64,000 bases of DNA, from IMG/VR virus record IMGVR_UViG_3300043427_003402; one strand, 5' to 3'. Below the pieces are notes generated by a model. That model was not told where the DNA came from, searched no databases, and saw nothing but the letters and a program-made list of their open reading frames with translations. The number at the start of each line of letters is the position of its first letter. Position 1 is the first letter of the stretch. Position numbers and translations under genes: made by a program. Below, one piece after another: positions 24,928 through 63,613 of the stretch. This DNA is from a virus.

Positions 24928-25803
24928 TTAAAGTCCTATATCGTGCAGAACGTCGCCCATCTCGGCCGCTATTCGTTTACGCAGCTGTAACAGCGTCTCT
25001 TCTAAGTCTTTACTAATCTGATTATAGCTCCGACCGATCTGTACGCCAAAGCCATTAACCCCAGGGACCAGTTCACCGTCTTCAATTACTGTTAGCTTAC
25101 CTGTAATCGCTCGTTTGTTGTGCTCGGCGTCTTCAAAGTAGATTCCAAGGTACTGGCAAACCAGAACACCCTCTACCGCAGGCAGTTCCGCAAGCAGCTC
25201 CAGTATCTCCTTTGTGAGGGCTGCGGAGACGTACTGGTTCTCGGCCGAACCTGAAACGAGTTGCGCGTCGGCGGCCAGCGCCGCGACCGCGGAGAAGTCA
25301 TCGTCGGTAGTATCGGTGCCAGTTTCGTACTGCCTGAAGTTAGGGGCGTCAAACGACCACGTGCCCGCGGCCAGCGCACGAAGTTGAAACTTGCTGAACT
25401 TTTCGTAACTTTTACGCTCCGCTTCCGTCACGCTGTTGGGGTCGCGCTCCAGCTTGTTCAAGTGCGTCTTCAGCTCAACGAGCTTCAGGAAAGGAATGGT
25501 AGCCATGTAACCCATTTTGCTCATGTGATCCGTCAACGCGCGCTTAATAATCCAAAAGGCATACGTTATCAACTTGTTCTTGCAGGTCAGGTCGAACGTT
25601 TTGATAGCCGTCATCATGCCGATGTTGGCCTCTTGCATGACGTCTTCCATCGCCACCCAATCTGGGTACGTGATACGGTTAACGAGCATCTTTATAAAAG
25701 AGCGGTGCCGCTTCAGCAGCGCCATCATCGCATCGCCATCTCCGGACTGCGCACGGCGGATGAGTTCAAGCTCGTCAGTCTTTTCTTTGCTCACTCTGGG
25801 CAT
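24928..25803 (-). CDS. sigma-70-family RNA polymerase sigma factor
   Basis: LIRRAQSGD.DA (r1.2/2.1), EDVMQEANIGMMTAIKTFD....KLITYAFWII (r2.2-2.4), SFDAP (r3.2); region 4 divergent. Confidence 0.85.
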   Translation of the reverse strand: MPRVSKEKTDELELIRRAQSGDGDAMMALLKRHRSFIKMLVNRITYPDWVAMEDVMQEANIGMMTAIKTFDLTCKNKLITYAFWIIKRALTDHMSKMGYMATIPFLKLVELKTHLNKLERDPNSVTEAERKSYEKFSKFQLRALAAGTWSFDAPNFRQYETGTDTTDDDFSAVAALAADAQLVSGSAENQYVSAALTKEILELLAELPAVEGVLVCQYLGIYFEDAEHNKRAITGKLTVIEDGELVPGVNGFGVQIGRSYNQISKDLEETLLQLRKRIAAEMGDVLHDIGL

Positions 25804-35569: not shown

Positions 35570-35884
35570 TTATACGCGCGGGTGCACTTCGTCGTGTAAG
35601 CCGTAGAATTTGCGCGCTGTACGCCGCACTAAACTTGTTGCGGCGTCCGCAATCGGCCGCATCAGCACGCCGTCGATAACGCCGCCCATACTACCACCAA
35701 GTAAAGACGTGCCGCCGGCACCGCGCGGATTACTCATGAGCCCGTACGCGACGTTGTTGAGTGAGTTACGCGCCATATCGGCTTTGTGCGCGTCGAAGTA
35801 TGCCGCAGTCGCACGTGCGTGCTGCTGCACGTCTTCCATTACGGCCCCGTGCTTGATTAGCTGGTACGCCTCGAACGGCCGCAT
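35570..35884 (-). CDS. small predicted virion protein with aromatic-K-x-G leader
   Basis: MRPFEAYQLIKHGA N-terminus; TAATG coupling to protease. Confidence 0.6.
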   Translation of the reverse strand: MRPFEAYQLIKHGAVMEDVQQHARATAAYFDAHKADMARNSLNNVAYGLMSNPRGAGGTSLLGGSMGGVIDGVLMRPIADAATSLVRRTARKFYGLHDEVHPRV

Positions 35885-37314
35885 TAAAAGTCTCCAAAGC
35901 TCGTGGTGTAGGCGCTGTGCAGCTGCGCCGCACCGTAGCCAAATTCGCCGCTAGCTTTCTTGTGAATTCCGTGGTACACCGCCAAGTACGGAAGCAGCCC
36001 CGCGTCTAGGTTAACGCGTAAGTTTGCCGCTTTAATTATAGGCGCGCGCATGCGCCGCGGAGTGACGAACGGTTCTATGTACGAACGTTTCTCTGCAAAT
36101 GGCCGAACTAGGTTCATTACACGCTCTACGTTCGCAAAACTTTTACGCGCAAACTTAATTTGCGCGTTTTGCGCAATTTCATCCCGCCAGCCATCAACGG
36201 GCGGAACGTACACCACAGCTTGGTCCAGTTCGTACGCGAGTTTTGGTGTGAGCGCATCCGAACCGAACGTAACGTAGTACAGTTCTGAGGGGCGCAAGCA
36301 CATACCGAGTTTAGCCAAACCGGCGGTCACTTCGTCTAAACTAAACTGCCTCAGCTTGTCCAGGACGGGCGGCGGCAGTACCGGCTCGTTTTGGTACAGG
36401 GTTTGAAACTCGTCCAAGACCACATCCAGCGGGAGATCCGGTCCCTGTTTCTCAATCTTCGCCGATTTTGCCACCGGGTTGCTCGCGAGAGTACGCGTGT
36501 CTAAGCGCGCCTGATCACGCGCCACCTTCATGATTGAAAGGGCCTCCGGCGCAGCGGGACTCTCGACGCAAGACTCGTCGAAGAAATGCGGGAAGTCATT
36601 TATCATGCAGACCGGCGTACCGTCTTCTTTAATTTGCCGCAAGCTGTACGCGCTGGTACCGGGCTTGATGTGTACGCAATACTGCGCGCGGGTGGGCGCA
36701 AGGTTTTGGCAAATGCTGCACCGGTCAAACGGCACGCGCGCTGCCATCGAGGTCCCGATCGTTGCCCCGTTATCTAGCCTGTCTGCCCACTTTTTACCTT
36801 TGGTGCGGTCAATCCAGATTAGGTTCTCTACGCGGTGCATCCGGTTGTTCCAAAACGTGTTCTGGATTCCGCCGATTGCCAACCGGGGATCCGTATTACG
36901 ATGCTCCTCAAACACATGGCCTTTAAGAAAGGTCTTGTAGCCCCAGCCTGGACGGATACGAGCTTTGAACTTATCGAAGAAGCTCATAGCTGTGTCTGCC
37001 GGCGGAAGCCCGAGCAGCGCTTTCTCCGGGAACGCGTCGCCGTTGTTGTTGACGCCCCAAAATTCGCTCGCGCCCAAGCCGATTACCAAGGCGTACACCC
37101 TGCCCGGTACGGCTTTTACGTTGTGGCACTCCGCTAAAGCTTCTTCCGCCGCCGCAGTCTTAACTTGGTGCTGCCCAACGGAGCGCCGGTCGTCGACCTC
37201 TAAGCCACGAGACGTTTGCGCCAGTTTAACTACGCGCGACTCACCTGTGTTCAACGAGTGGTCGTCACCGAGCGCGATGTGCTTCTCAAGGTGGGGCGGG
37301 TGTTGCATTTTCAT
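35884..37314 (-). CDS. prohead (capsid maturation) protease
   Basis: NNNGDAF, VFEEH, GTSM(A)...DRCSIC, FFDESCVESPA: assemblin/HK97-type serine protease motif order with Zn insert. Confidence 0.75.
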   Translation of the reverse strand: MKMQHPPHLEKHIALGDDHSLNTGESRVVKLAQTSRGLEVDDRRSVGQHQVKTAAAEEALAECHNVKAVPGRVYALVIGLGASEFWGVNNNGDAFPEKALLGLPPADTAMSFFDKFKARIRPGWGYKTFLKGHVFEEHRNTDPRLAIGGIQNTFWNNRMHRVENLIWIDRTKGKKWADRLDNGATIGTSMAARVPFDRCSICQNLAPTRAQYCVHIKPGTSAYSLRQIKEDGTPVCMINDFPHFFDESCVESPAAPEALSIMKVARDQARLDTRTLASNPVAKSAKIEKQGPDLPLDVVLDEFQTLYQNEPVLPPPVLDKLRQFSLDEVTAGLAKLGMCLRPSELYYVTFGSDALTPKLAYELDQAVVYVPPVDGWRDEIAQNAQIKFARKSFANVERVMNLVRPFAEKRSYIEPFVTPRRMRAPIIKAANLRVNLDAGLLPYLAVYHGIHKKASGEFGYGAAQLHSAYTTSFGDF

Positions 37315-40539: not shown

Positions 40540-40920
40540 TTACCAGCCGCGGTTCTTTGTGCTGATCCTTTTGGTGTCAACGATGGGCGCGTTGATGATC
40601 TCCGCGCGGTCTACGTCGTCTTCTGCGTACTTAGCGATGCCTTTTTGGCGCATGTGCTTGTAAATAATCTGCGCCAGACTGTTATACACTTGGTGCACGC
40701 TCTCTGAATCGACTTCAAACACCATATCTTCGCGCGTGTTACCTTCCTCGTCAGCACGAAACACCACGACTACTTCGTTATCGGAGCAGACGAACTTTTC
40801 GATCGCTGTATAAGGAATCACTTCTCCGCGGAAGCGCAAACCATTGTGACCCAGTTCGGGCGGAAGGTCGTGGCCGACGATCGGCAACGCAAACGTAGAG
40901 AGATCCATTGGACTTGCCAT
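40540..40920 (-). CDS. hypothetical protein
   Basis: 126-aa ORF, AAGGAG/AAAGG RBS, divergent from terminase. Confidence 0.6.
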   Translation of the reverse strand: MASPMDLSTFALPIVGHDLPPELGHNGLRFRGEVIPYTAIEKFVCSDNEVVVVFRADEEGNTREDMVFEVDSESVHQVYNSLAQIIYKHMRQKGIAKYAEDDVDRAEIINAPIVDTKRISTKNRGW

Positions 40921-40989
40921 TTGACCTTTACTCCTTATAAAAGACGTGTTAGGATGACCCTTGCCAGTATACGCAGCAGCGAGAAGCGA

Positions 40990-49631: not shown

Positions 49632-50373
49632 CGTCTGCCCCTGGTACATTTATGCGCTGAATGATTCGTGCAGCGTTGGCGCGGATCAAGAGCAGAATCT
49701 TTTTAATGACCAAAGGGTCTTGCCGTACGCGGAAGGCAGGGATCGTCAACACCTGTAAATTCAACGTGCACTCGAACAGGTCGTCATACTCCTCAGTTAG
49801 TACCGGGCCGTTCAAATCAGGGTACCCTACGTACTGAAGGTTAAAAGCTTGCTGTATGTCTAGGCGGCTAGCGATGAGCGCGCCGCGTATGCGCTGAGCC
49901 AGCAGGGTCGCGCGTAACGAATCGCGGTCAAGCACCTGAATTTGGTAGATCAAGGTTTCGCGCACGGCCCGTCGGTCGTCTTGCGGGGCGTCTGCACCCG
50001 CCATCTTGACGGCGTCTCGCATCGCATGGGTCTCTGCCTGCGCGCGCCCAAACTTTACGACGATTAAAGGCCGCTTATCCCGAGCGGCCATTTCGTTGCG
50101 CCGAAGGTCTTTTGCAATCAGCACCGCGGAGCGCTCCGGATCCTCGGGGAAATAAATAAAATCGTCATCAGTCATGAACCGGTGCTCGATCACGCTGAGG
50201 ATGCCACTCTGCACGAGAAGCGGCAGAAACTCGTAATTGGTTGAGGCGATTGCGCTCAGGTGCGACATCAAGGTCGCAACGGACGCCTGCGCAAACTCGT
50301 TAGGGTCGTTGTTTATTGCAAGCGGGTCGTTGCCGTTAGGGTCGGGGTAACCTGCGAATGGCTCGATCGACAT
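49624..50373 (-). CDS. possible tail completion/terminator protein
   Basis: RPLIVVKFG and YQIQV...LAQRIR pattern; TAATG-coupled to RNAP beta-prime C gene. Confidence 0.45.
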   Translation of the reverse strand: MSIEPFAGYPDPNGNDPLAINNDPNEFAQASVATLMSHLSAIASTNYEFLPLLVQSGILSVIEHRFMTDDDFIYFPEDPERSAVLIAKDLRRNEMAARDKRPLIVVKFGRAQAETHAMRDAVKMAGADAPQDDRRAVRETLIYQIQVLDRDSLRATLLAQRIRGALIASRLDIQQAFNLQYVGYPDLNGPVLTEEYDDLFECTLNLQVLTIPAFRVRQDPLVIKKILLLIRANAARIIQRINVPGADDA

Positions 50374-52223
50374 TAGTACTTACCATCTTTCCCTTGCCCG
50401 AAATACTGACCGTGCACGTAAGCGGGCACGGGATTAAACGTATCCCGAATCTGCGTGCGCGCCCCCGTCGCGGCGTTTTGGCGGAAGGTCTGGTTGACGA
50501 ATCGGAACGCTAGGTTAGCCATCCAGTCGTCCTTATGGAGGGCGGCGCGCTCGGTTCCGAGCATAATCGGTTTAACTATTAAACTGTTCTGCTTGAACAC
50601 TGGAACGTGCGAGATGTTCTGGTCCTTCAACTGCTTAACTGTTGCGGGGGTCAAAACCGTATACGGCGAAGCAGTACCGGTTTCGTGTGCAAGGATTCGG
50701 CCTTCAGCTTTCCCTAACTCCACCGTGTCATGAGCGGTGGGTAAATGCTGCTGGATGCTATTCCAGTGCACAACTTCCCCAGGCACGTAGTCGTGCGTTC
50801 CCGGGTGAATAACTTGGCCCAAGTTCAAGATACCGCGCGTCACAACTTCGGTAACACGTGAATTGCTACGGATACCCGCATCGGCATATATCTGCCGAAG
50901 CCTTGACGCGAAAAATTCGCGGCCCGCTTCCATGCCTTTGTGCTCAACCACGTCTACAGGGTTTATCTCGCCGTGAGATAAGGGGTCACCCTTCGCAACC
51001 CGCTGCCCAGGCTTGACTGTAACATCCAAGCCCGGTGCGACATAGTGCTTAATGTTTTTCACTGTCACGTTGAGCCCACCTGCCGCAGCTGGCTCGACGT
51101 GCGTAACCTCGCCCGACACGTGCGCGAGCGTCGCTGCACCTGCAAACATCTTCGGCGCGTGCATAAATTGAAGGATGGTCTGGAGCGGAGATTTGCTTGC
51201 GCCCACGACGCCACCAGCGTGCTTTTGGTTCAAGGCGAGCTGGGTCAAAGGCGCGGTCAAGCCTTGCGCGGCCTTCAAGCCGACGTGCTCACCCACTGGC
51301 GGCAGCCGCCCTTCTTCGTTCAGACCGGTGCATACTGCGCACACGCCTTTTGGCGCGGTGCAGAACAACGGACTGCGTATCTTTACGACGGTGCGCTGCT
51401 TCGCCAACCGCTCCCGCATCACGTTGGTGATAATGTCATTCCGGTGCCCGACGCCCGGTACGTCCTCAGCCAACGCCCGACCAATCAAGTCCGGGCTGTT
51501 CGCGGGCAGCTCGCGGCCGTGCGTAGTCTTACAGTCGTGGTCGGTTACCACCATATCCATGTGAATGGTGTTCAACTCTTTAGCGAACGCGCCCGGATCA
51601 CGTACAGCGGTGTAGGTGTTGACCAAGCCGCGTCTAGCGCCTTGCGCGTGCACATAGAAGTCGATAGGGCTCATTCCCTCACTGAAGCTTCGTTGCGCGA
51701 TTACCGGCAGCAGGTGATTGCTAGTATCGAGGTTTAGTCCCACCATCCCCAGCATCTGCCTGCCCATCGACGTGTCACCGCGTGCACCGGACTTGATCCA
51801 GCTAGTCAAATTATTCGGCCGGCTCTCGATCGCTGCTTTGATGCCGTTGTTTACGTGCTCTTCCACTTTTGCAAACAGCTCTAACTTTTTCTGCTGGAAC
51901 GGTAAGCTGCGGTTCAATTCTGGATTAAGCGCAGCCTCGTGGCGCAGACGCAGCAGCTGCGGCATGTGCGACTTAAACGCGGCGTCGCGAAGGTCTGTAT
52001 GAGGTTTCAGGTCGTTGATGCTGAAGCTCGAGCCCGACTCCAACGCGATCTGGTTACCGACGTCACGAAGATTTTGCACAACTGTCCCGTACTGCTTCGG
52101 GTGATGCTCGGCGATTGTTTGCAAAAGCTTACTTGTACCACCCTTATCCAACGGCCCCTGCAACGCAACGTCCGGCGGTAGCGCGCCTTGAATAAGAAGC
52201 TGCCCAATGGTAGTGGTCGACAT
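50373..52223 (-). CDS. RNA polymerase beta-prime C-terminal half
   Basis: SGARG, SFSEG, GARRGLVNT (bridge helix), DCKT, RSPLFC...VCAVCTG (Zn), GEHVGLKAAQ...TQLALNQKHAGG (trigger loop). Confidence 0.92.
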   Translation of the reverse strand: MSTTTIGQLLIQGALPPDVALQGPLDKGGTSKLLQTIAEHHPKQYGTVVQNLRDVGNQIALESGSSFSINDLKPHTDLRDAAFKSHMPQLLRLRHEAALNPELNRSLPFQQKKLELFAKVEEHVNNGIKAAIESRPNNLTSWIKSGARGDTSMGRQMLGMVGLNLDTSNHLLPVIAQRSFSEGMSPIDFYVHAQGARRGLVNTYTAVRDPGAFAKELNTIHMDMVVTDHDCKTTHGRELPANSPDLIGRALAEDVPGVGHRNDIITNVMRERLAKQRTVVKIRSPLFCTAPKGVCAVCTGLNEEGRLPPVGEHVGLKAAQGLTAPLTQLALNQKHAGGVVGASKSPLQTILQFMHAPKMFAGAATLAHVSGEVTHVEPAAAGGLNVTVKNIKHYVAPGLDVTVKPGQRVAKGDPLSHGEINPVDVVEHKGMEAGREFFASRLRQIYADAGIRSNSRVTEVVTRGILNLGQVIHPGTHDYVPGEVVHWNSIQQHLPTAHDTVELGKAEGRILAHETGTASPYTVLTPATVKQLKDQNISHVPVFKQNSLIVKPIMLGTERAALHKDDWMANLAFRFVNQTFRQNAATGARTQIRDTFNPVPAYVHGQYFGQGKDGKY

Positions 52224-52231
52224 GCTCGCTC

Positions 52232-53794
52232 CTATTGTCGCTGCGGGGCGTGAAGGGGGCGCCGTAAAAGGTCCGTCAGTTGGTTATTCAACCGTGTTTT
52301 CTTATTCGCTACCGTGTACGTCCACTCGTCTACCGTGGCCCCTGCGGCCGGATTACGAAACATGCCAAATATCTTCGGCTGCACGCTCACGTAGCGGTTC
52401 ACATGCACTTCGGGCACCGGAGAGCCCGCCCGAATGCCTCGTGCTTCTGCCTGCTGCGTCACCTCGGGGTTGAAGTTAGGGTCGAGGGTTACGTGCAAAG
52501 TAGTTCCTGGAAGGTTGAGGCCCTCCGTGCCCGCAGAGTTAATCACCATGACTCGCTTCTTGCCCTTCATATAATCGTCAATGTGTTGCAGCCGTTCGGC
52601 CTTGCCCTGGTGCGTCTGCCCGACAAACACCCCCGGCTCGTAACCGTGGTGCTTCAGGCCCGCCACCGCGGCGTCTACTCCGCCGGTCACAAGATTCGTG
52701 TAAACAATCGCTTTGTTATTCGGGTCGGCTTTAAGGTGCGAGTCTACGTCCTTCAACGCGCGCTGCAGCTTGGGTGTTGCTAGCGCGCCTGACAAGGCGT
52801 CATGCCGGGCGTCCATCGTATGCACGCTGTTCGCCACTTGGCGCGCGCGAATGATCTTTGCCAGCATACTCCGTGCTTCGCTCGAGCTAACAGGAACGTT
52901 ATTGCGAACCTTGGCCGCAATCGCTGGTGAAACATTTGCCATTGCGTAGTCGTATAATTCTTTTTGGTGGGCGCTCATCTCTACTGGAATATTGTGCACG
53001 ATTTTGCGCGGCATGTTTGTTGCCACCGCCTCTACGGGGACGTAATGAAGATGCTTATCAAGTTCCTCTTTAAGGTAGCGCATGTTTTTAAGCGCTGGCT
53101 CCACGGTCCGGACGCCCATGCCAAACGCAGCAAACGGCCCGTGCGTTTCTACGCGTTGCCCCACGTACATACGATCAAACTGTTTGGGCGTACCAAGCTT
53201 ATGTTTGCCATCTGTCACGATGTCGACAAGCGGGACGATGTCGTGGGGGTGATTCATGACCGGGGAGCCCGAAAGCGCAATAAAATTCTTCACCTTTCGC
53301 CGCGCTTCGCGCATCGCGGAAAAATTAAGCGACTGATCATTACGCCCCTTATGCGCCTCGTCCCAAATAATCGTGTCCGCTTGGGTCTTGGCGACATATG
53401 CGTGCGGATCCTTTCGGAACAACTCGTTGCTTACAACGTAGTAGTGCGCGTTCGGAAGTTCTTGGTCAATCTGAAGGCTGCCTTTTTCATTCTTCGGCCC
53501 GAATTTAAGGGCCTTACTCGTAGTGAATTTGTTTACGCCTTGTTCTATGAAATTTTCCCGCAGGCTCGACGGCACGACGACAAGCGCGCGCTTCGCTTTA
53601 CCCGAATCCCGCAAGTGCTCAAAGATGGCGGCGGAACTCAGCGTCTTACCGGTTCCGACCCCGTGCGCGAGCAAGATTGAGCCGTTGTTAGCGACCGCAC
53701 GGTCTACAGCATCGCGCTGGTGCGGCTGCAGGGTCACGTCTGGCCGCAGCGCGCCCATTTTGGCGAGATAGCACTGGTACGGTGTCATGTACAT
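52232..53794 (-). CDS. SNF2-family (SF2) helicase/ATPase with N-terminal virion-type leader
   Basis: LQPHQ, HGVGTGKT, DEAH, LSGSP, EGLNL, QAEARGIR; leader MYMTPYQCYLAKMGA. Confidence 0.9.
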   Translation of the reverse strand: MYMTPYQCYLAKMGALRPDVTLQPHQRDAVDRAVANNGSILLAHGVGTGKTLSSAAIFEHLRDSGKAKRALVVVPSSLRENFIEQGVNKFTTSKALKFGPKNEKGSLQIDQELPNAHYYVVSNELFRKDPHAYVAKTQADTIIWDEAHKGRNDQSLNFSAMREARRKVKNFIALSGSPVMNHPHDIVPLVDIVTDGKHKLGTPKQFDRMYVGQRVETHGPFAAFGMGVRTVEPALKNMRYLKEELDKHLHYVPVEAVATNMPRKIVHNIPVEMSAHQKELYDYAMANVSPAIAAKVRNNVPVSSSEARSMLAKIIRARQVANSVHTMDARHDALSGALATPKLQRALKDVDSHLKADPNNKAIVYTNLVTGGVDAAVAGLKHHGYEPGVFVGQTHQGKAERLQHIDDYMKGKKRVMVINSAGTEGLNLPGTTLHVTLDPNFNPEVTQQAEARGIRAGSPVPEVHVNRYVSVQPKIFGMFRNPAAGATVDEWTYTVANKKTRLNNQLTDLLRRPLHAPQRQ

Positions 53795-53799
53795 ACGCT

Positions 53800-53809
53800 A
53801 ATTATCACC
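53800..53809 (-). promoter_or_regulatory. candidate promoter GGTGATAATT, possibly giving a leaderless SNF2 mRNA
   Basis: GATAAT lies 6 nt before the ATG, no RBS; identical to 33273-33282. Confidence 0.5.
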
Positions 53810-53810
53810 T

Positions 53811-53849
53811 GAAAATAAAAGCCACTCCCGGAAAGTTTCCGGAAGTGGC
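53811..53849 (-). terminator. intrinsic terminator after ribonucleotide reductase
   Basis: GCCACTTCCGGAAA/TTTCCGGGAGTGGC stem followed by TTTTATTTT. Confidence 0.8.
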
Positions 53850-53868
53850 GACCAGTACTGTTAGAGGG

Positions 53869-56800
53869 TTAGCCGCACTTAGAGAAGCCGCAACTGAGGT
53901 CAGAACACTTGCAGCAGCCTTCCTCAAACTTTAAGGCACTGCCGCAATCTGGGCACTCAGGACTCTCACCAAAAATGGTGACAGCCTCATCAACATAAAC
54001 TTGCTCGGTCGACAAGCTTAAATTGCTGAACGACAACTCCGTTTGCAACGCGTCAAGAGCTTCTGAGCCGGCGCCTTGGAAGAACGCGGGAGCAGCTTTG
54101 AGCGCCTTGCCCAGACCGTCCGGGATGCTCAAGACTTTGTTCGGCCCCAAGCCCGCTTGGTCTGCGCTACGGATACCGATCAGCGTCCGTGCTACGTCAT
54201 CCACCGGCGCCCCGTGCTGCAACGCCATGGACGCCAAGCGCCCAATGGCCTCAGCCAAGCTGTGGATCGTACCACCGGAGCGGCCAATCGTGAGCAGCAC
54301 CTCGCGAAGACCAAGCTCGTCGTAGTTGAAGGTGGTCAACATTTTCCCGTTACCGGTGTGGATCACGCTGGTGAAGCCCGCCAACGTCTCGGGACGCGGG
54401 CGCGGCGTACCACCCCTAGTCGCCGTAGGCACCGTGGCTTCCAACTGCGCAGCTTCGGCTAGCTCCTTGCTGGACTTTGTACCGGTGGTAAGCGGTTGGA
54501 ACGAACGCGAACCGTCGCGGTATACGGTGATGCCTTTGCACCCCAGAGACAACGCCATGTCGTACGCGTCAAGCACGTCTGCTACTGTGGCGGTGGCAGG
54601 CAGGTTAATCGTCTTAGACGTGGCCGAGTCGTTAAACCCTTGCAAAATCGCCTGCATCTTAACGTGCGCGTCAGGGCGTATGTCACCGGCGGTAACAAAC
54701 ACCTCGCACAGCTCAGTTAGCTCTTCTTTGCCGAGCCAGTAGTCTAGCGCGCCCGCAGCTGCAGCCGCGTCTACCGAGCCTTGATGCCGCGCCACGATCT
54801 CAAGAATCTCATCGCGTTCAGCTTCGTTAAACGCCGAGAGCGCCGCTACAAACTCTGGATCGCCGTCGCGCATCTCCAAGCCAGCCTGGAAACGCGAAAA
54901 GACTAAGCCAAACAACGGCTCGCAGCCGCCAGTTGTGTCGTGAAACACCGACAACGTCCCTGTTGGCGCAATCGTCGTGGTCGTCGAGTTGCGAATACCG
55001 GTTTCGGTAACTCGGGTTTGGCACTCGACGTAAGTGTCCATGATATGGTGCCAAATCGGTTCCAGCGCTCTTACGGCGTTATCGGAAGCCGTCTGCGCCT
55101 TTTCAATTCGACGCGCCAGCAGGTCTTGGTGGAACGCAACCGACTCGTCCCAATTATTTACAAAATAGGGATAGGCGCCGCGCTCAGTCGCCAAGTCGAT
55201 AGACGCGCGCTTGGCCTCGGCGTCGATAAACGCGTACAGCGCAGCAGCTGTGTTGCGGCCTTCTCTTGAATCGTACGCAAGCCGCAGTTTGAACAACGCC
55301 CGTGCAAGGCCCATAATACCGAGCCCGAGCTTACGGGTAGTCATAGCGATCTCTTTAATTTGTGGAACTTTCGGAACGTACGCGTTGGCTTCTACCACGT
55401 TGTCCATAAACCGAATACTCAGATGAACGGCCGCGCGCAAACCTGACCAGTCAATAATCGCGTCGGGCCCGGAGCCAATAACGAACTGGTCCAACGTGAT
55501 TGAACCTAAGTTGCACGACTCGTAAGGAATCAAAGGCTGTTCCCCGCAGTTCGCAGACAGTATCCCGTCGTGCTCACCGCAGGCGACAAAGTACCGGTGC
55601 GTGTCGTCTACGGTCCCGTTGTACACGTCCGCAAGCTCGCCTGTTCTTACAACTTTTACAACTTTGTGGTTTACAACAGCCTGGTCTTTTTCAGGACGAA
55701 CCCAGCCTAGTCGTTTCATAACAGTGTATTTTGAGCAGCCCACTTCAGCGGCTATTTGCTTAAAGCTCTTGCCACTTTCCCGAAGAGCGGTCAGCTGAGC
55801 GTCGTCGAGGTCGCGACGATAACGGCCATTGTTTTCACCGTCTGTAGGGATTAAGTAGAGCGGGTTACGCTCGTCCCAGACACCGTACATAGGGTTCTTA
55901 TCGCCCTGCATGTGCTCCGAGTTATGCTCAGTACCTAGCTTAATTTCAAGATTCGTAGGCCGGTTGTCACTTCTATCCTCGTTAATGTGGTGACAGTGTT
56001 CAGCCGGATAGTCAGGGCGCCGGCCCGTGTGGCCGCTGACCATGACGTGATGGTACAGCGGGGCCTCAATGCCGTTCGATATTCTCAGGTAGCCTTTCGT
56101 GTTTGCCTTATACCGGTAAACGCTCATCAAAGAGTCGTTAGGTTTCAAGTCTTGAACTTGAACCTTCATACCGTTCCGCAGGTACAAATTATGGTCTAAT
56201 GTGGCCTTCAAGACTGTACCGTCGTCCAAATGTAGCTCTGCAACCTCAACCGCCTGCCGGGTTAACCGGGGCGCGCGCATCAGCTTGACCACGAAATTAC
56301 CTTGATCGTCTTGGGACAACACTTGTACACCGGTGCCGCGCTCCGCAAGGTCTTTGAAAGAGACGTGCCCGTCAACAGTCCATACCTGCGTGTCCCCAGT
56401 CCAGCACGGATTTGTCGCCTCGTACGCACCCAATCTTGGAACAGGGTTGTCACGGTTCATGCGGTCGATAAAGGCCAGACCAGGCTCGCCTGTTGCGTGT
56501 GCCCGCTCCGCGATGTGGCGCCACACCTCACGCGCGCTCAGAAATTCCCCCGTCGGTCCCGAGCGCGGATTGATTAACTCGTAGCGGTCGTCGTCGGCTT
56601 CGAGCGCCGTCAGGAACGCGTCAGTGACTGCAACCGAGACGTTAAAGTTTGTCAGCTGCGACAAGTCGCTTTTGAGGTCAATGAACTCCAAAATGTCAGG
56701 CGAGTCGACACGCAAGATGCCCATGTTCGCGCCGCGCCGAATACCGCCTTGCTTAATAGCCTCTGTGGCGGCGTTAAAAACTTTCATAAAAGGAACTGGC

Positions 56801-57270
56801 CCGGAACTCGCGCCTTTCGTGCTGCCCACAGTGTCGTTTTTGGGCCGCAGGCGCGTGAAAGCGAAGCCGGTTCCGCCACCTGTTTGATGTATAAGCGCCG
56901 CGTGCTTTATCGTGTCAAAAATGCCGGAGAGGTCGTCTTCCACAGGCAGTACGTAGCACGCGCTGAACTGGCCAGTCCGGATACCCGCGTTGGCAAGCGT
57001 CGGCGAGTTAGGCAGAAACTGCCGCCCGCGCATCAATTCAAAAAAAGCTCTGTGGAGCTCTGCAACTTTATCCGCGCCGCCAAACGCGGCTTCGGCCGCC
57101 GCCATCACTTCGGCAGTGCGCCAGTACATCCCGTCTACGTCTTCTAAAATTGTCTGGTCGTCTAACTTGTTGAAATAACGTTTCTCCATGACACTGACGG
57201 CGTTTGCCGACACCGGCGGCGCGGTTTCGACCCACGCCTGGACATCCGAAGGTAAATCCGACAAAAACAT
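53869..57270 (-). CDS. nrdJ: class II (B12-dependent) ribonucleotide reductase with intein, C-terminal TSCPD and Zn ribbon
   Basis: FLPNSPTL, SACYV, GGGTG, RRGANM, ATNP^CGEQ, TIAPTGT, SKTINLP, KGITVYRDGSR, CPDC...C; start MFLSD. Confidence 0.9.
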   Translation of the reverse strand: MFLSDLPSDVQAWVETAPPVSANAVSVMEKRYFNKLDDQTILEDVDGMYWRTAEVMAAAEAAFGGADKVAELHRAFFELMRGRQFLPNSPTLANAGIRTGQFSACYVLPVEDDLSGIFDTIKHAALIHQTGGGTGFAFTRLRPKNDTVGSTKGASSGPVPFMKVFNAATEAIKQGGIRRGANMGILRVDSPDILEFIDLKSDLSQLTNFNVSVAVTDAFLTALEADDDRYELINPRSGPTGEFLSAREVWRHIAERAHATGEPGLAFIDRMNRDNPVPRLGAYEATNPCWTGDTQVWTVDGHVSFKDLAERGTGVQVLSQDDQGNFVVKLMRAPRLTRQAVEVAELHLDDGTVLKATLDHNLYLRNGMKVQVQDLKPNDSLMSVYRYKANTKGYLRISNGIEAPLYHHVMVSGHTGRRPDYPAEHCHHINEDRSDNRPTNLEIKLGTEHNSEHMQGDKNPMYGVWDERNPLYLIPTDGENNGRYRRDLDDAQLTALRESGKSFKQIAAEVGCSKYTVMKRLGWVRPEKDQAVVNHKVVKVVRTGELADVYNGTVDDTHRYFVACGEHDGILSANCGEQPLIPYESCNLGSITLDQFVIGSGPDAIIDWSGLRAAVHLSIRFMDNVVEANAYVPKVPQIKEIAMTTRKLGLGIMGLARALFKLRLAYDSREGRNTAAALYAFIDAEAKRASIDLATERGAYPYFVNNWDESVAFHQDLLARRIEKAQTASDNAVRALEPIWHHIMDTYVECQTRVTETGIRNSTTTTIAPTGTLSVFHDTTGGCEPLFGLVFSRFQAGLEMRDGDPEFVAALSAFNEAERDEILEIVARHQGSVDAAAAAGALDYWLGKEELTELCEVFVTAGDIRPDAHVKMQAILQGFNDSATSKTINLPATATVADVLDAYDMALSLGCKGITVYRDGSRSFQPLTTGTKSSKELAEAAQLEATVPTATRGGTPRPRPETLAGFTSVIHTGNGKMLTTFNYDELGLREVLLTIGRSGGTIHSLAEAIGRLASMALQHGAPVDDVARTLIGIRSADQAGLGPNKVLSIPDGLGKALKAAPAFFQGAGSEALDALQTELSFSNLSLSTEQVYVDEAVTIFGESPECPDCGSALKFEEGCCKCSDLSCGFSKCG
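55549..56406 (-). mobile_element. intein with HNH endonuclease (286 aa)
   Basis: starts CWTGDT, block B TLDH, HHINEDRSDNRPTNL HNH, VYNGTV block F, ends SAN before Cys+1. Confidence 0.9.
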
Positions 57271-57345
57271 AGCTACCTCTAATAAAGCGAGCACGACAAA
57301 CGCGTCCTTTTAAACGCGCGCGTAGGGGTACCTGCGGCAAACTAC

Positions 57346-60300
57346 CTATTCGATCGAAATCGGATCGTTAATACGAATCCGTCCCTCTCGGTAAGCAGCG
57401 ATTGCCTCCTCTTTTGTCCGGAACCGTGCTACGGGGCTGCTACCCTGCGGCGCGGTCGCCTTCCACAAACCCAGTACCGTCTCTTGCGACGGCACGTGCA
57501 TTGGCGCATGATTTAGTGGGTTAAACAAGTTGTTTGACGGTAACATTTTGTAAACATCCTTGACGCCTTCCGGCGTAACGGGAATGTTCACACCCATCTG
57601 GTCTCCGTCAAAGTCAGCGTTTAAGCCCTTCAGCACCAACGTGTTCATGTGTAAACTCTTTCCGTCAACAATACGGGGCTTCAGCCCCACCAAATTAAAC
57701 TTATGCAAACTAGGTGCGCGGCTCAGGACGAGAGGAGTTTTGGCCATCACGTTTAGCACCGCTTGAGAAGCTGTTGGCGTCTTATCCTCGAAATGGCGGG
57801 CGGCTACCGGCAACGGCATACCGCCCTGAACAAGATCACCTATCGCGTGGTTGCGATAAATTTTCATAGCCATGTCGTGGGGAATTCCAACTTCATCTAT
57901 ACCAAGAGACGGATCGGGAACGATAACCCCGCGGCCAGTAATGTCCTGGCGGCGGCTAAGAAGTTTGCTTTGGAAATAACCATCTTTTGCCTGCCCGCTT
58001 CCTGCAATCACTTTCAGGAACCCTTGTGCAGGTCGTTCACCTCGCATGTTTTCAACCACCGGGTCAAGCCCCTGCACTTTTTCAAACGCCTCGTGTAAAC
58101 CCTTGCGTAGGTCCCGTATCGTGGTAGGGTCGCCGATCTTTTTATGCTCTGTGAGCTGATCGTTGACCAACATCAGCGATTTGTACAGGTGATTTGCGTC
58201 AGATACTACGAGGCGGCCAGTTTCGGAATCAGGGTATATTGGCCGCATAGCGGGAGGAATTACCGGAACGTGATTCAAAATGTAAGCGTCTTGCGGTTTT
58301 AAATCTGCTTGGTCTAAAGCTTTAAGAAACTTTAATTGTTTGTAGATAGCGTCCTTTTTTGAGACAGAATTAGTGCTGTTTACTTCTGAACTTAGTTGTT
58401 TGATCTTAGTCTTTACATCAATCTTTGATAACTGTTCTTTAATGTGTTCGGCGCCGTGGTTGTATAGCGTATCAGCGTATGACTGCTTCGTCAAGCCCAG
58501 CAGCGTACGCGTTGCGTTAGCGAATAAAGGGTTGACAATCGGCTCCGTCAAATTGATGTGCGACCAGCGGTTGCCGACAAGGCCGCCCGTGCTACGGGTG
58601 TCGAAAAGTCCACCCTCTTCGGGACGGTAAGGCAGGCCGGTCGTAGGATCAGGTTTATCGTGCACCGTTAGCGGCTGCGTGACTGCGCCCGAAGACATGG
58701 TTAGCACGTCCTTGTTAGTCATCGGAAGCAGCGCAATCGAGTTGCCTTCCTTTTTAAGGTTCAAGCCCATACCTTGAAGCATACCCTCAAACTTTTTGAA
58801 CGCAAACGTGGGCTTTGCCGGCGGCAGCGGCTTGCCCTGCCACATGGCCTGGAGCACCTCGGGGTTCGCTTCGCTCTTGTGCTGCACGTCCTGTAACAGC
58901 GCACGGCTGCCTTGGGCGAGAAGACTGTACAGGTCAAGCGTGCCGATGCTCTTGGCGCCTTCTTCGCCGCCTTTCGCTGGTCGAAGGTCAATGTCGTACT
59001 CGCCGCCAGACCGCGCGCTAAACCCGGTTTCGGCCTGCTTGAACAGCTTCAGCATGTACATCGGCCCCATCAACGTACGGCCAAGAGAACGCTTCGTAGT
59101 CGGATCAAAAAGCTCCTCGGTTCCATCCGTGCCCGCCTTACGCGCCAGCTCGTTCACTTTTTCCCAGACGTTCCCGGTTTGAAAGTGCGGAAATACTTGC
59201 TGCTTGATTCCAAGCTTCTGTAACGACTTAGCGGCAATCGTCTCGAATATCTGCCCGTTGTTCATACGTGAGGTCAACCCGGCAGAGTTCAGGATCACGT
59301 CGGGGATCTGCCCGTCGGCAGTCCGTGGCGCCTCGTGGTCGGGGATGATTGCAGAGATGACGCCTTTGTTACCGTGCCGACCTGAAAGCTTGTCCCCGAC
59401 CTGCACTGTGGCTTTGGCGGAGATGGCGACTTTTATCCCCTCGGGCGTCTTCTCCACCGCCATGACTTTTCCTTCGTACGGCCGGTCCCACACGACGGCC
59501 TTATTTGCGTAGGGCTGGCGGAAGCCTTTGTTTGCGCGCCCGAGAATCAACTCTTCCGGCGTAACGAGGCGTTTGCGCAAGCCCAACATAATAGGGTCGC
59601 CGTTCGTTAACACCTGCCCGACCTTCACAACGCCGTGCTCATCCACCTTCGCAAAGTGCTTATTTTCAAACTCGGTCGGGAAGTGCGCCTTGAACTTCGC
59701 CAAGTCAAAAACGGAGCGTTCGTCAATGAGCGCCTCTTCGGTGTGCAGGTGCTGGCTGACCAGCTTGTCGGCGCCTTGACGCGTCACCACGATCGCGTCT
59801 TCGTGGTTCAGTCCCTTATACGGCATAAACGCGACGGTTAGATTTTTACCGAGTGCAGCAGCAGCGCCGGTCGTAAAGTTGTTGCCCGCGAGCAACTGCC
59901 CGGGTGTCACCTTGTCGCCAGGCTTGACTTGCAGGTCGCCGTGCAAGAAACTGCCGCCATTCAAGGGAAACTCGTGCGGGTAGTTTACTTTGACGACTTG
60001 CCCTTGGGCGGTCTTCAAATGAATGACACCGGGATCAATTTTGTGAACAGTGCCTGCGGCGGGGCTTCGTACAACGAAGTCTTCCAGCGCGTTACGCGCA
60101 AACGGCGTGTCCACGATTGGCGGTTCGCGGTCCACTAAACTTACTGCCTGCCCCAGCATCTTCGCGCCCATCGCAGCGCGGTGCGCGTGTGTCGACTGGA
60201 TGAACGGCACCATGGTGGTAGACACTGTGAACTGCGAACCTGTCGGAATGCGGTACTGTACGTGCTGCGGCTTGGCGTCAATCACCATACCCTGGTGCAC

Positions 60301-61635
60301 TGCGCGCACCAAGCCGTGCTCTGTCGGCTCCGTATCGTGCGCAACGACCGAGTCGAAGAGTTCAACCGGCGTCTTGAACTCGGGTTTACCTGTCCGTGCG
60401 TTGAGCACGCGGGTCATTAACTGCTTACCCTGCTTCGTAGCACTCAGCGCAAGACGCACGTCCACGCCCGCGCTGGCGTTGTCGGGCGTACGTACGGGGT
60501 CGATAAACCCCATGCTTGATGGGTGAACGGCGCGAACCTCCGAGCCGATCGCGTGGGTATCACCAATTGCGCCCTCGCCCAGAGACGACAGTTTAAACGC
60601 GTTTTCCTTCATCTCAAGCGGGTTAATTTGCATGACGTGGTTAGACTGCGCGGACTGCGTGAAAAACTGATCAATGAACGGCTGCACATACCGGTGGAGG
60701 CCCACGTCCCCCAGCGCTTCGGCTTTATCCACGCGAGGGCGAAGTTTATACGCCAAGTTAAACCGGTTTTTCTCCAGTCGTTCGCGCACGAAATCTTCGA
60801 CGCCGTGAATCTCCGTAAACGCGAGCTGGTCTTTACCCGTCGGGTCTTTTTCTTTCCGGTGCACTGCCAAGACTTGTTTCGCAGCGGCCTGCAGCACGGG
60901 CGCGGTTATTTTGTCGGCCTCAAGGCCTAAAGTTAAACGGTTGACCCCGGGATCCATCTGCACATTGTGAAAATACTCGCGGATATTTGTCCGCAGCTCT
61001 GGCAGCGCCGTCGGCACGGGCTTGTTTGGTTGAATCATGCTGTGCATTGTACTGAGCGCCGCGTGCTCGTCTTTCTCCGAAAACGGCGTGTCGAAAGCCT
61101 TGCCCAAGCCTAAACTGTCGGCACCGAGAACGTGCTTCAGCACTGGGTTTAGCGGAACGCGAGTGTTGCCGAACTTGATGTTGAACTGATTTGCTTCGGG
61201 GTCGAGGGTCAGCGCGAAGTTCCGGCCTTTTGCCAAGTTGAAGTCTGCGACAGCCTCGCCAAGACGATTAACTTTGGTGTACGCTGCCGGCCGCAATCGC
61301 CGTTGCATGTTCACCTGGTACTCCTTACCGTTAATGACAAACGTGTGCCGGTTCGTAGGTGTGGGCAGAAAACCAATCCGCACAACCTTTTTGTCCAGCA
61401 GCTTGTTGTCGGCCCCGTGCATGGCTACAGTGGCCTTGACAGGCACGCCCCAAGTTCCGCCAGACATGATCGCCTGCTTCTGCCCGTTGTAGTCCGTCGG
61501 GTCAGGCATATCCGGCGCGTGAACCTGCGTCACTGTGAGCGTGCGGTTCGCGTTGGTCACCACAGGGAAAGTGTTTTTAACGCCCTCACTGAACTGGTGC
61601 ATCATGGCTTGAAAAGTTTCTTGAGGTGTACGCAC
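57346..61635 (-). CDS. RNA polymerase beta fused to catalytic N-terminal half of beta-prime
   Basis: beta: FVING, VHPS..GFIDP..TPD, RAAMGAKM..QAV, NHEDA, GDKLSGRHGNKG, SRMN.GQ; beta-prime: GGLFD, VIPP.MRP, R.PSLH, NADFDGD, PSQE. Confidence 0.95.
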   Translation of the reverse strand: MRTPQETFQAMMHQFSEGVKNTFPVVTNANRTLTVTQVHAPDMPDPTDYNGQKQAIMSGGTWGVPVKATVAMHGADNKLLDKKVVRIGFLPTPTNRHTFVINGKEYQVNMQRRLRPAAYTKVNRLGEAVADFNLAKGRNFALTLDPEANQFNIKFGNTRVPLNPVLKHVLGADSLGLGKAFDTPFSEKDEHAALSTMHSMIQPNKPVPTALPELRTNIREYFHNVQMDPGVNRLTLGLEADKITAPVLQAAAKQVLAVHRKEKDPTGKDQLAFTEIHGVEDFVRERLEKNRFNLAYKLRPRVDKAEALGDVGLHRYVQPFIDQFFTQSAQSNHVMQINPLEMKENAFKLSSLGEGAIGDTHAIGSEVRAVHPSSMGFIDPVRTPDNASAGVDVRLALSATKQGKQLMTRVLNARTGKPEFKTPVELFDSVVAHDTEPTEHGLVRAVHQGMVIDAKPQHVQYRIPTGSQFTVSTTMVPFIQSTHAHRAAMGAKMLGQAVSLVDREPPIVDTPFARNALEDFVVRSPAAGTVHKIDPGVIHLKTAQGQVVKVNYPHEFPLNGGSFLHGDLQVKPGDKVTPGQLLAGNNFTTGAAAALGKNLTVAFMPYKGLNHEDAIVVTRQGADKLVSQHLHTEEALIDERSVFDLAKFKAHFPTEFENKHFAKVDEHGVVKVGQVLTNGDPIMLGLRKRLVTPEELILGRANKGFRQPYANKAVVWDRPYEGKVMAVEKTPEGIKVAISAKATVQVGDKLSGRHGNKGVISAIIPDHEAPRTADGQIPDVILNSAGLTSRMNNGQIFETIAAKSLQKLGIKQQVFPHFQTGNVWEKVNELARKAGTDGTEELFDPTTKRSLGRTLMGPMYMLKLFKQAETGFSARSGGEYDIDLRPAKGGEEGAKSIGTLDLYSLLAQGSRALLQDVQHKSEANPEVLQAMWQGKPLPPAKPTFAFKKFEGMLQGMGLNLKKEGNSIALLPMTNKDVLTMSSGAVTQPLTVHDKPDPTTGLPYRPEEGGLFDTRSTGGLVGNRWSHINLTEPIVNPLFANATRTLLGLTKQSYADTLYNHGAEHIKEQLSKIDVKTKIKQLSSEVNSTNSVSKKDAIYKQLKFLKALDQADLKPQDAYILNHVPVIPPAMRPIYPDSETGRLVVSDANHLYKSLMLVNDQLTEHKKIGDPTTIRDLRKGLHEAFEKVQGLDPVVENMRGERPAQGFLKVIAGSGQAKDGYFQSKLLSRRQDITGRGVIVPDPSLGIDEVGIPHDMAMKIYRNHAIGDLVQGGMPLPVAARHFEDKTPTASQAVLNVMAKTPLVLSRAPSLHKFNLVGLKPRIVDGKSLHMNTLVLKGLNADFDGDQMGVNIPVTPEGVKDVYKMLPSNNLFNPLNHAPMHVPSQETVLGLWKATAPQGSSPVARFRTKEEAIAAYREGRIRINDPISIE

Positions 61636-62947: not shown

Positions 62948-63613
62948 CTACGCCGTATAAATTGAGTCGCTGTCTTCTAGCTCATTTGCACGCAACTTTA
63001 GGTGCGGGAAAGCGTCCGCTAGTTGGTCGCGTCGCATCTTGTTAATGAGCGGCTCCGCTAGGGTGCTCCCGATCGCGGCCCCTAACCCCAACCCCGCTAC
63101 CGGATGCCGCCCTAGCGCGGTGGCGGCGGCCGCGCCAACGGCCATACCCGCCGGCCCCGCGATGAATGGCGCTGCCATGGCTGCAGCGTAAGGGTGCCGC
63201 ACCAAAAAGGGGAGCGGTTTACCGCCATGCGCATAATAGTTATCCACGGCCGCCTGATGCTTGTGGACCTTATCCAGCGTACTGGTGACGGCGTGCGCAC
63301 CTACGCCTGCGATCGAACCAAAAGACGCGCTAACAAGTGGCGCGACCGCATGCGCGTAGCGGGCCAAAACACGCAGGGACGGGTCGCTGACAGTCTTAGG
63401 GATAAGTTTTCGCGCAAGCAGCCCCGCTCCTGCGCCTAGTGACGCCCCTATACCGATTTTCGCTGCAAGGGCTTCGCGGCGATCCGCCAGTTCGTTGAGG
63501 TCCGCCGGAGCGTTGCCTTTCCACGGGTAGCGCAAAATTGTGTCGGGCGCGTAAGGTTCGGGCGGTGCGGCTGCCGCGCGCTTTAAGAGGTACAGGTGAT
63601 AAGGTAACGACAT
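62948..63613 (-). CDS. glycine-zipper protein, HPY family, single module with leader
   Basis: MSLPYHLYLLKRAAA leader; LPFLVRHPY; four Gly/Ala-rich segments. Confidence 0.75.
   Translation of the reverse strand: MSLPYHLYLLKRAAAAPPEPYAPDTILRYPWKGNAPADLNELADRREALAAKIGIGASLGAGAGLLARKLIPKTVSDPSLRVLARYAHAVAPLVSASFGSIAGVGAHAVTSTLDKVHKHQAAVDNYYAHGGKPLPFLVRHPYAAAMAAPFIAGPAGMAVGAAAATALGRHPVAGLGLGAAIGSTLAEPLINKMRRDQLADAFPHLKLRANELEDSDSIYTA

Follow-up and report, generated by a model that had tools for sequence, protein, structure and literature searches.

A two-chain RNA polymerase with fused beta and beta' segments in a large phage lineage, probably packaged with a sigma factor and accompanied by an accessory SNF2 ATPase

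The window analysed here, a 64,000-nucleotide stretch of viral DNA (IMG/VR record IMGVR_UViG_3300043427_003402), encodes an RNA polymerase divided over two chains. All four genes of the original prediction lie where it had placed them, on the minus strand, which also carries every other feature located by position below. Chain 1 (P0001; 57346..61635) has 1429 amino acids from a GTG start and matches the Pfam families Rpb2_3, Rpb2_6, Rpb1_1 and Rpb1_2, as well as PDB beta and beta' chains with E-values of 5e-68 and 5e-53, respectively. Chain 2 (P0004; 50373..52223), the C-terminal part of beta' (beta'-C), has 616 amino acids and matches Rpb1_4, Rpb1_5 and PDB beta' (E=3e-41). With E-values as low as 1e-68 for polymerase homology, these are, at the level of sequence, strong matches and not chance ones.

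Pfam and PDB agree that chain 1 joins a compact, complete beta (about residues 1–961) to the N-terminal part of beta' (about residues 994–1429), so that both double-psi beta-barrels reside on one polypeptide, as originally proposed. The beta match is continuous across residues 81–961, the point at which homology to solved beta chains ends, and beta' homology begins by residue 994, equivalent to E. coli beta' residue 40. Judged from these alignments, chain 1 is a head-to-tail beta–beta' fusion without a real linker, the junction falling at residues 961–994 (58654..58755). Shortly beyond it, 41 residues (1018–1058; 58462..58584) replace the 115 of E. coli beta' 64–178, and the cysteine count over all 1429 residues is zero; the short stretch and the lack of cysteine together indicate that the N-terminal zinc ribbon of beta', whose loss had been predicted, is truly absent.

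Chain 2 supplies the funnel, the bridge helix (residues 195–227) and the trigger loop (about residues 320–341), all three anticipated from the sequence, together with the second beta' zinc site and the C-terminal clamp region, and its alignment to bacterial beta' starts at about Streptomyces residue 661 and runs onward. The four cysteines of the zinc site (Cys231, 288, 295 and 298) are nearly invariant. Between them the two chains hold the hallmarks of a two-barrel enzyme: the beta-barrel active-site motif GRHGNKG with its conserved lysines (residues 752–758; 59362..59382, inside the Rpb2_6 match), the beta' catalytic motif NADFDGD (residues 1339–1345; 57601..57621), from which chain 1 runs 84 residues further to stop just past the barrel, the bridge helix, the trigger loop and the second zinc site. 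Searches of 10 related genomes with the alpha and omega models PF01000, PF01193 and PF01192 gave nothing above cut-off, with positive controls, and all seven relatives surveyed carry a single beta' barrel gene per genome. On gene content, with the count of polymerase sets and the lack of alpha and omega both taken from the genomes of relatives, the two chains are probably the only RNA polymerase of this phage.

Between the polymerase halves, and beyond what had been predicted, sits a cargo gene for a class II ribonucleotide reductase of 1141 amino acids with an HNH-type intein (53869..57294; Pfam Ribonuc_red_lgC, lgN, TSCPD, Intein_splicing and HNH_3), the intein being missing in a 65% relative. 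A strong terminator-like hairpin of 13 pairs followed by a T run (53821..53849) separates the reductase from the gene for the SNF2 ATPase. Cargo at this position varies among relatives and includes the reductase, a GGDEF regulator, ferritin-like and structural genes; the gap may have gathered such cargo after the split, in this phage the reductase and the SNF2 gene. The motif GATAATT, of which one copy lies 5 nt ahead of the SNF2 start codon, occurs six times in the window against 2.8 expected, a count reached by 8 of 100 shuffles; as a promoter upstream of SNF2 it was dropped because it is not enriched in the window. A scan for sigma-70-type promoters gave nothing above chance.

The ATPase itself, SNF2-A (52232..53794), is a minimal SNF2/Rad54-type core of 520 amino acids (Pfam SNF2-rel_dom, ResIII and Helicase_C) with Walker A and DEAH intact. 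Its PDB matches are to the ISWI, SsoRad54 and RapA cores, and it is the orthologue of gp217 of Salmonella phage Arash. As predicted, its stop lies 8 nt before the start of beta'-C, and the stop codon falls within the AGGAG ribosome-binding site of that gene. The alignment marks an N-terminal leader of about 17 residues (53744..53794) as a candidate capsid-targeting propeptide. At least three other genes of the window have a leader of this type, the motif occurring in four real open reading frames in all against about 0.03 expected by a rough estimate. SNF2 orthologues as distant as 50% identity retain the leader, and those of the Arash type do not have it; over 10 residues only, it stands in register with the N-termini of T4 IPII and IPIII (MKTYQEFIAE) at Tyr4, Gln5, aromatic 7, aliphatic 8 and Ala9. 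A candidate prohead maturation protease (35884..37314; phrog_18299, E=4e-8) gives context to the leader hypothesis. The N-terminus of chain 1, kept in relatives together with its GTG start and similar in appearance, was also considered as a capsid-targeting leader and rejected, as it aligns to a conserved N-terminal segment of beta in distant homologues.

The co-location of polymerase and SNF2 genes is seen in this sub-lineage and also in Arash, where, as in seven related contigs, the orthologue directly follows beta'-C in an order opposite to that of the window. Across the lineage it is uncommon: just 13 out of 80 related loci have the gene within 10 kb of the polymerase, and in most relatives it is unlinked or absent. 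Among 10 near-complete genomes it is far from the polymerase in six (20–100 kb) and absent in four, and Vibrio phage D69 also lacks it. We read SNF2-A as an accessory and not a core part of the polymerase.

Related loci were retrieved with a beta'-C alignment as the query, a single beta'-C protein having returned none, and a megablast search of phage records with the region as query gave no match. The two-chain form is the commonest in this large phage lineage, accounting for 70 of the 120 best protein clusters, the others being one-chain (39), beta-only (10, two of them phage-type) and unsplit beta' (1). In 70 of 76 IMG/VR loci the gene for the fused chain precedes beta'-C in the same orientation, at distances in those 70 of 48 nt to 9.6 kb (median 1.85 kb). 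When placed on 13 single-chain homologues of 2020–2148 amino acids, the two chains are collinear and abut within 4–5 residues. In FastTree and IQ-TREE phylogenies, both fast methods, rooted on bacterial beta only, one-chain forms make up a basal grade while two-chain forms fall into one group with 99% support. These sequence relationships suggest that the two-chain form arose once, through a cut in a single-chain beta–beta' enzyme. Recent capture of a host rpoBC is ruled out by the identity of about 30% to any bacterial enzyme and by the separate, well-supported phage clade. The site of the beta' break is the same as in cyanobacteria and in phiKZ-type phages, and the best PDB matches to beta are cyanobacterial, which we attribute to the compact length of those chains; a cyanobacterial origin of the split was rejected on the basal position of the one-chain forms.

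Evidence on packaging comes from Arash, whose fused chain is 33% identical to chain 1. Both of its polymerase chains, its SNF2 orthologue and its sigma factor gp10 are among the most abundant proteins of virion preparations: the fused chain gp206 gave 128 unique peptides, the beta'-C chain gp216 40, the SNF2 orthologue gp217 38 and gp10 24, alongside 32 for portal and 30 for capsid protein (PMC10585845). A second sigma, gp196, is absent from the virion list, and carry-over enzymes yield only 2–3 unique peptides (PMC10585845). The list comprises 116 of 272 proteins (PMC10585845), which makes some carry-over certain. It could be argued that the polymerase is not a virion protein at all and is made by the host RNA polymerase after infection for middle and late genes, its signal in Arash reflecting very high late expression plus carry-over. 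The Arash authors raise this possibility themselves and list many metabolic enzymes (PMC10585845), and neither polymerase chain has a clearly detachable leader; we nevertheless regard this reading as unlikely, as the unique-peptide counts of both chains, SNF2-A and gp10 are on a par with or above those of portal and capsid, far from the yield of carry-over enzymes, and the polymerase genes lie among head and tail genes, beside the portal gene in Arash. In addition, one polymerase set per genome implies that a host-independent programme would need the enzyme at time zero. The predicted packaging of the enzyme is plausible from the Arash proteome; it is carried over from a relative with 33% identity, and one whose SNF2 orthologue has no leader.

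The window also holds a sigma-70-family factor of the Arash gp196 type (24928..25803; phrog_351 and Pfam Sigma70_r2), a type likewise present in relatives. The orthologue of the gp10-type sigma is located 335 nt beyond the window end, and this type occurs in all six relatives examined (Arash, Vibrio phage D69 and four complete IMG/VR genomes). These two factors speak against the earlier suggestion that the machine might be sigma-independent: most likely, the phage-encoded sigmas join the two-chain core to form a sigma-dependent holoenzyme, although they could act on the host core enzyme instead. The sigma-binding clamp helices correspond to about residues 260–309 of E. coli beta', and residues 1059–1115 of chain 1, just upstream of the lid and before the predicted clamp helices, still align to E. 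coli beta' 179–235 with no sign of loss. We consider it very improbable that a sigma-free packaged polymerase relies on SNF2 to open promoters or to terminate transcription, on the model of poxviruses or pGKL2. The lost zinc ribbon, the packaging of an SF2 ATPase alongside the polymerase in Arash and a layout that parallels pGKL2, whose helicase does associate with the polymerase, would fit such a machine, but the gp10-type sigma is both universal among the relatives examined and virion-borne in Arash, while SNF2-A is dispensable across the lineage and is not of the NPH-I/VETF type.

A role for SNF2-A in transcription is a tentative proposal and somewhat doubtful. It is quite possible, if a little short of probable, that the ATPase is unrelated to transcription and is a translocase of replication, recombination or repair, or a packaged anti-host factor, caught in the cargo gap. 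That gap carries unrelated cargo in different relatives, and the scarcity of close linkage described above is accompanied by a location on the other strand in three lineages and by loss of linkage or of the gene in most complete relatives. The wider family is common in Gordonia phages that have no RNA polymerase, where it is annotated as DNA helicase, and a LigD phosphoesterase-like domain is associated with it in L043, L052 and L015; being fused to or beside this domain in two lineages points to DNA repair. The match to RapA is weak, covering only residues 20–178 in the N-lobe at an E-value of about 2e-6, below the ISWI and Rad54 core matches. Set against this, the gene adjoins beta'-C in two distant lineages, in opposite orders and with start and stop codons that overlap or are coupled, and its abundance equals that of beta'-C in Arash particles. 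About 4 of 10 lineages with the gene keep it less than 10 kb from beta'-C against roughly 11% if the gene were placed at random in a genome of 180 kb, a rough estimate across lineages that are not strictly independent. A complex prediction for SNF2-A residues 18–512 with beta'-C residues 1–500, run with alignments, scored 0.00 and gave no answer, speaking neither for nor against binding.

Taken as a whole, we place just on the probable side the reading in which a large tailed phage encodes no RNA polymerase other than this one, made of two chains, sigma-dependent and probably packaged with its sigma, with SNF2 as an accessory. A single-chain beta–beta' enzyme would have been cut once at a permissive site behind the beta' barrel, a step read from fast trees with a root on beta only. 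The covalent beta–beta' link probably stands in for the alpha-dimer assembly platform, although the enzyme may still make use of host alpha or omega. The gp10-type sigma would probably enter the head together with the polymerase and be injected to serve early transcription, and the sigma at 24928..25803 would probably redirect the same core later. SNF2-A, which appears to be translationally coupled to beta'-C and bears a leader resembling capsid-targeting peptides, is on those two grounds probably co-packaged and injected, and may act on the polymerase, in termination or by recycling it as RapA does, or on DNA for some other purpose. A bolder version strikes us as rather unlikely: a third kind of injected machine, in which the alpha- and omega-less two-chain enzyme is packed in the head with both sigma and SNF2, arrives in the cell together with the DNA, is re-aimed by the second sigma and carries the entire infection programme with no need of the host enzyme, while SNF2 acts on the polymerase in recycling, termination or genome pulling.

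To our knowledge, cellular-type polymerases of phages have so far been studied almost solely in phiKZ/AR9-type phages, which have no sigma and shattered subunits. The enzyme of the present lineage is much simpler: it consists of two chains, lacks alpha, omega and the N-terminal zinc ribbon and comes with ordinary-looking sigmas, and in Arash on Salmonella the lineage has a cultured member for testing. Such an enzyme could reveal how little a bacterial-type polymerase needs for a working core, show whether a covalent beta–beta' link can replace the alpha platform and explain why the polymerases of cyanobacteria, of phiKZ-like phages and of this lineage were each cut behind the beta' barrel independently. 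In practical terms, phage biology would also have to account for the loading of a 230-kDa enzyme, a sigma and an SNF2 motor into a head and for their passage through a tail.

Arash (gp206 and gp216; OQ632216) and the Vibrio phages D69, D148 and D181 share the layout, with a fused chain of 1525–1546 amino acids at 31–33% identity, a beta'-C of about 606 amino acids, one polymerase set, no alpha or omega and the same two sigma types. They differ in the cargo between the halves and in SNF2-A, which in Arash follows beta'-C and has no leader and which D69 does not have. The published Arash annotation names the chains "beta" and "beta'", leaving fusion and split unremarked (PMC10585845), and we found no published description of this layout in the literature. 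In phiKZ/AR9-type polymerases beta comes in 2–3 pieces, none of them ever joined to beta', and the phages encode two sets of the enzyme and lack a sigma-70-family factor; like the present enzyme these polymerases have no alpha or omega, a virion-packaged form exists, and linkage of a Swi2/Snf2 helicase to the beta'-C gene had been predicted earlier (PMC7598289, PMC7824862). The original view that phiKZ divides its subunits differently is correct for beta, here whole, fused and in one set (as counted in relatives) with two sigmas, but not for beta', which is cut right behind the catalytic barrel in both, the PHROG beta'-N profiles ending within about 30 residues of the end of chain 1. Essentially the same break separates RpoC1 from RpoC2 in cyanobacteria and plastids, residue 25 of chain 2 corresponding to Synechocystis RpoC2 residue 14. 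The cyanobacterial enzyme is cellular, with beta, alpha and omega as separate subunits, and the sequence relationships suggest that the phage break is independent of it.

The yeast plasmid pGKL2 encodes the polymerase K2ORF6p/K2ORF7p, in which beta is fused to the front of beta' and the cut comes after the bridge helix (regions a15/a16), leaving a tiny second chain; the associated helicase K2ORF4p is of NPH-I/VETF type, and the system has a capping enzyme, a poxvirus-like origin and no sigma (PMC6211774). The parallel drawn originally thus extends to the fusion of beta with beta'-N, but not to the break, as the bridge helix is here on chain 2, nor to the helicase family, here SNF2/Rad54-like. 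Natural rpoB–rpoC fusions in Helicobacter and Wolbachia are unsplit and keep alpha and omega, and they show that cellular-type enzymes tolerate an end-to-end beta–beta' link. The mReC metagenomic tailed phages of Weinheimer and Aylward have deeply branching beta and beta', encoded by separate genes in pairs of about 1000–1400 and 900–1010 amino acids (PMC7481178). Membership in that group was rejected because of these unfused genes and a different terminase family (PF03237 in mReC, PF05876 here); a search of Arash and D69 for the mReC capsid family PF07068 was empty, but its control also gave no match. E. coli RapA shares the SNF2 ATPase core and has been proposed as an analogy for SNF2 proteins linked to phage polymerases. 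RapA has about 970 residues with N-terminal domains that bind RNA polymerase, and these are absent from SNF2-A, whose 520 residues are core only. The T4 capsid-targeting propeptide, a short N-terminal peptide common to unrelated head-internal proteins of one phage, has a possible counterpart in the leader of four open reading frames of the window. Set beside these systems, the layout looks like a new arrangement of an injected, sigma-dependent transcription machine and not a sigma-free one.

The minus-strand interval 61635-50373 is filled by four co-oriented genes, for which the Pfam assignments are a 1429-residue fused polymerase chain (chain 1, 61635-57346; Rpb2_3, Rpb2_6, Rpb1_1 and Rpb1_2), a class II ribonucleotide reductase of 1141 residues with an HNH intein inside it (53869-57294), a 520-residue SNF2 ATPase (53794-52232) and a 616-residue second polymerase chain (chain 2, 52223-50373; Rpb1_4 and Rpb1_5). 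Matches to solved structures identify residues 81-961 of chain 1 as bacterial beta (E=5e-68) and residues 1059-1428 as beta' (E=5e-53). As the beta homology extends to 961 and a weak collinear match sets residue 994 against beta' residue 40, beta runs directly into beta'. The two barrel motifs, GRHGNKG of beta at 752-758 and NADFDGD at 1339-1345, are both carried by chain 1. E. coli beta' residues 64-178 are replaced in this chain by only 41 residues, cysteine is lacking throughout, and the N-terminal zinc ribbon of beta' is absent. Chain 2 can be aligned to bacterial beta' from its residue 4 onwards, and the alignment places the bridge helix, the trigger loop and the four cysteines of the second zinc site on it, completing a catalytic core in two chains. 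Gene positions, Pfam domains, structural matches and motifs together bear out the original prediction of a split, two-chain RNA polymerase beside an SNF2 gene.

The SNF2 stop codon lies within an AGGAG box, with the start of chain 2 only 8 nt further on, while a terminator-like hairpin of 13 pairs separates the reductase and SNF2 genes. Right after this hairpin, 5 nt ahead of the SNF2 start codon, is a GATAATT heptamer (53800-53806, minus strand); the window holds six copies where 2.8 are expected, which is no enrichment, and this copy may be part of the ribosome-binding region rather than a promoter. The reductase intein (55549-56364, minus strand; protein residues about 311-582) combines an HNH endonuclease with a helix-turn-helix, and the same gene in a 65%-identical relative encodes 934 residues and has no intein. 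The large terminase of the GpA_ATPase family (40846-43839, plus strand) contains a LAGLIDADG intein, and homologues of the fused polymerase, with lengths of 1780-2490 residues, also often carry inteins and homing endonucleases. The complete lack of cysteine in the fused chain of the window (57346-61635, minus strand) is an unusual trait for a protein this large.

The layout extends well beyond this phage. An IMG/VR scan with an alignment as query returned 80 loci around homologues of chain 2 (beta'-C). Sufficient upstream sequence was present in 76, and 70 of these have the fused gene upstream of beta'-C in the same orientation, separated from it by 48 nt to 9.6 kb (median 1.85 kb). The cargo of this gap varies among phages and includes reductase, SNF2, a GGDEF regulator, ferritin-like genes and structural genes; in one 52% relative it is a response-regulator/GGDEF (diguanylate cyclase) gene (L006:18056-18958). 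Cultured phages with the layout are Salmonella phage Arash and Vibrio phages D69, D148 and D181. We found no description of it in the literature, and conclude that it is a real, widespread and undescribed variant of the phage multisubunit polymerases.

The best 120 protein clusters comprise 70 with the two-chain form, 39 with one chain, 10 with beta only, two of these being phage-type, and one with an unsplit beta' lacking beta. Thirteen homologues of 2020-2148 residues hold beta and the entire beta' in a single polypeptide, and when both chains are aligned to these, chain 2 takes up within 4-5 residues of where chain 1 stops. In both FastTree (114 rows) and IQ-TREE (45 rows) trees, rooted on bacterial beta, the one-chain forms are a basal grade, and the two-chain forms make up one group with 99% support. 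Arash and D69 fall inside this group, as does a secondarily three-chain form. In this last form (L015:10001-14833), placed next to Arash and D69, the fused chain is cut again into beta (1156 residues) and beta'-N (381 residues). A single cut of a one-chain ancestor is the best-supported reading of these sequences, short of proof because the trees were made with fast methods and are rooted by beta only.

The position of the cut is shared with other systems. Residue 25 of chain 2 aligns with residue 14 of RpoC2 from cyanobacteria, the PHROG profiles for phiKZ-type beta'-N subunits stop no more than about 30 residues from where chain 1 ends, and the beta' break of jumbo phages has been reviewed as coming after the barrel and coinciding with the cyanobacterial break (PMC7598289). 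The earlier view that phiKZ-type enzymes are split differently is on this evidence correct for beta and wrong for beta', where the break is the same. Given the tree topology, the common site looks like a permissive position used repeatedly rather than an inherited one.

Whole-record searches found a single beta' barrel gene per genome in all seven relatives examined. Neither alpha (PF01000, PF01193) nor omega scored above cut-off in ten relative genomes, seven of them complete with terminal repeats, and positive controls worked. Two sigma families occur in these phages. Type 1 (24928-25803) groups with gp196 of Arash and with polymerase-near sigmas of other relatives. Type 2 lies 335 nt beyond the window end (L003:6468-7271), has gp10 of Arash as its orthologue (30% identity, E=3e-12), and is present in all five further genomes tested, D69 among them; the protein encoded at L003:6468-7271 is extended by about 50 residues at its N-terminus.

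The window ATPase is a bare SNF2/Rad54-type core whose best solved-structure matches are ISWI, Swr1 and SsoRad54, its match to RapA being confined to residues 20-178. The SNF2 proteins encoded near these polymerases fall into two families, and the window protein belongs to the shorter (SNF2-A, 470-520 residues), as does gp217 of Arash (30% identity over the full length). Only 13 of the 80 loci have SNF2-A at a distance of 10 kb or less from beta'-C, either between the polymerase halves on the same strand (the window sub-lineage) or on the opposite strand, or immediately behind beta'-C (the Arash type). Among ten near-complete relatives it is 20-100 kb from the polymerase in six and missing in four; it is absent from D69, and homologues are common in Gordonia phages without a polymerase. 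The conserved partner of the polymerase is the type 2 sigma, the ATPase being thus a frequent but dispensable companion, near beta'-C in few loci and distant or absent in near-complete relatives. With phage sigma factors conserved alongside the core, the proposed sigma independence is unsupported, and a sigma-free polymerase driven by the ATPase is very improbable. That the SNF2 protein acts directly on the polymerase is a possibility we lean against. In two loci (L043:5552-7453 and L052:6051-7958) SNF2-A and a LigD 3'-phosphoesterase-like domain are fused, and in a third (L015:19922-22340) it is fused to or adjoins one, which may indicate a link to DNA-end repair in these lineages.

Packaging in the virion, also proposed originally, gains moderate support from Arash, in whose purified particles the core, one sigma and SNF2 are abundant. 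The fused chain gp206 was the most detected protein (128 unique peptides, 3516 spectra), and beta'-C (gp216), SNF2 (gp217) and the sigma gp10 gave 40, 38 and 24 unique peptides, against 32 for the portal, 30 for the major capsid protein and two each for ligase, primase and another helicase; the sigma gp196 is missing from the virion list (PMC10585845). Caution is needed, since 116 of 272 proteins were detected and the authors raise carry-over as possible (PMC10585845); even so, gp206, gp216, gp217 and gp10 behave like structural components.

The window SNF2 begins with a leader of about 17 residues, missing in Arash-type orthologues, whose motif also opens three other window genes (62948-63613, 38241-39020 and 35570-35884). 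Over ten residues it resembles, in register, the N-termini of internal proteins II and III of phage T4 (MKTYQEFIAE in T4, MTPYQCYLAK here), and in T4 propeptides of 10-20 residues load proteins into the prohead (PMC5694885). The leader is by analogy a candidate capsid-targeting propeptide; the window also encodes a candidate prohead protease (35884-37314), which might remove it. In a 52% relative (L094:6139-8673) the SNF2 frame extends upstream to 845 codons and starts with a leader-like peptide; it looks as if a leader-bearing gene had been fused in frame, or may be a start-codon artefact. Another orthologue (L093:4875-6995, 40% identity) has no leader and is instead lengthened at its C-terminus by about 190 residues that include glycine-zipper-like hydrophobic stretches, resembling suspected ejection proteins of the same phage group.

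We would envisage an enzyme in which the covalent beta-beta' link replaces the alpha platform. Core and type 2 sigma would be injected together and read the early genes, the type 1 sigma might redirect the same core later, and SNF2 would be co-packaged by way of its leader.

Arash and the Vibrio phages are the nearest relatives, and their records mention neither fusion nor split. In the metagenomic mReC phages beta and beta' are encoded by separate genes, and the terminase is of a different family (PMC7481178). In its working the enzyme is likened to the phiKZ-type virion polymerase, but three features that define that family are missing: the split beta is not seen here, and the two enzyme sets and the lack of sigma are not shared by the window lineage. 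A link of Swi2/Snf2 to beta'-C genes in phiKZ-like phages was predicted earlier by Iyer et al. (PMC7824862). The pGKL2 enzyme has only the layout in common, its cut after the bridge helix and its NPH-I-like helicase being features of its own.
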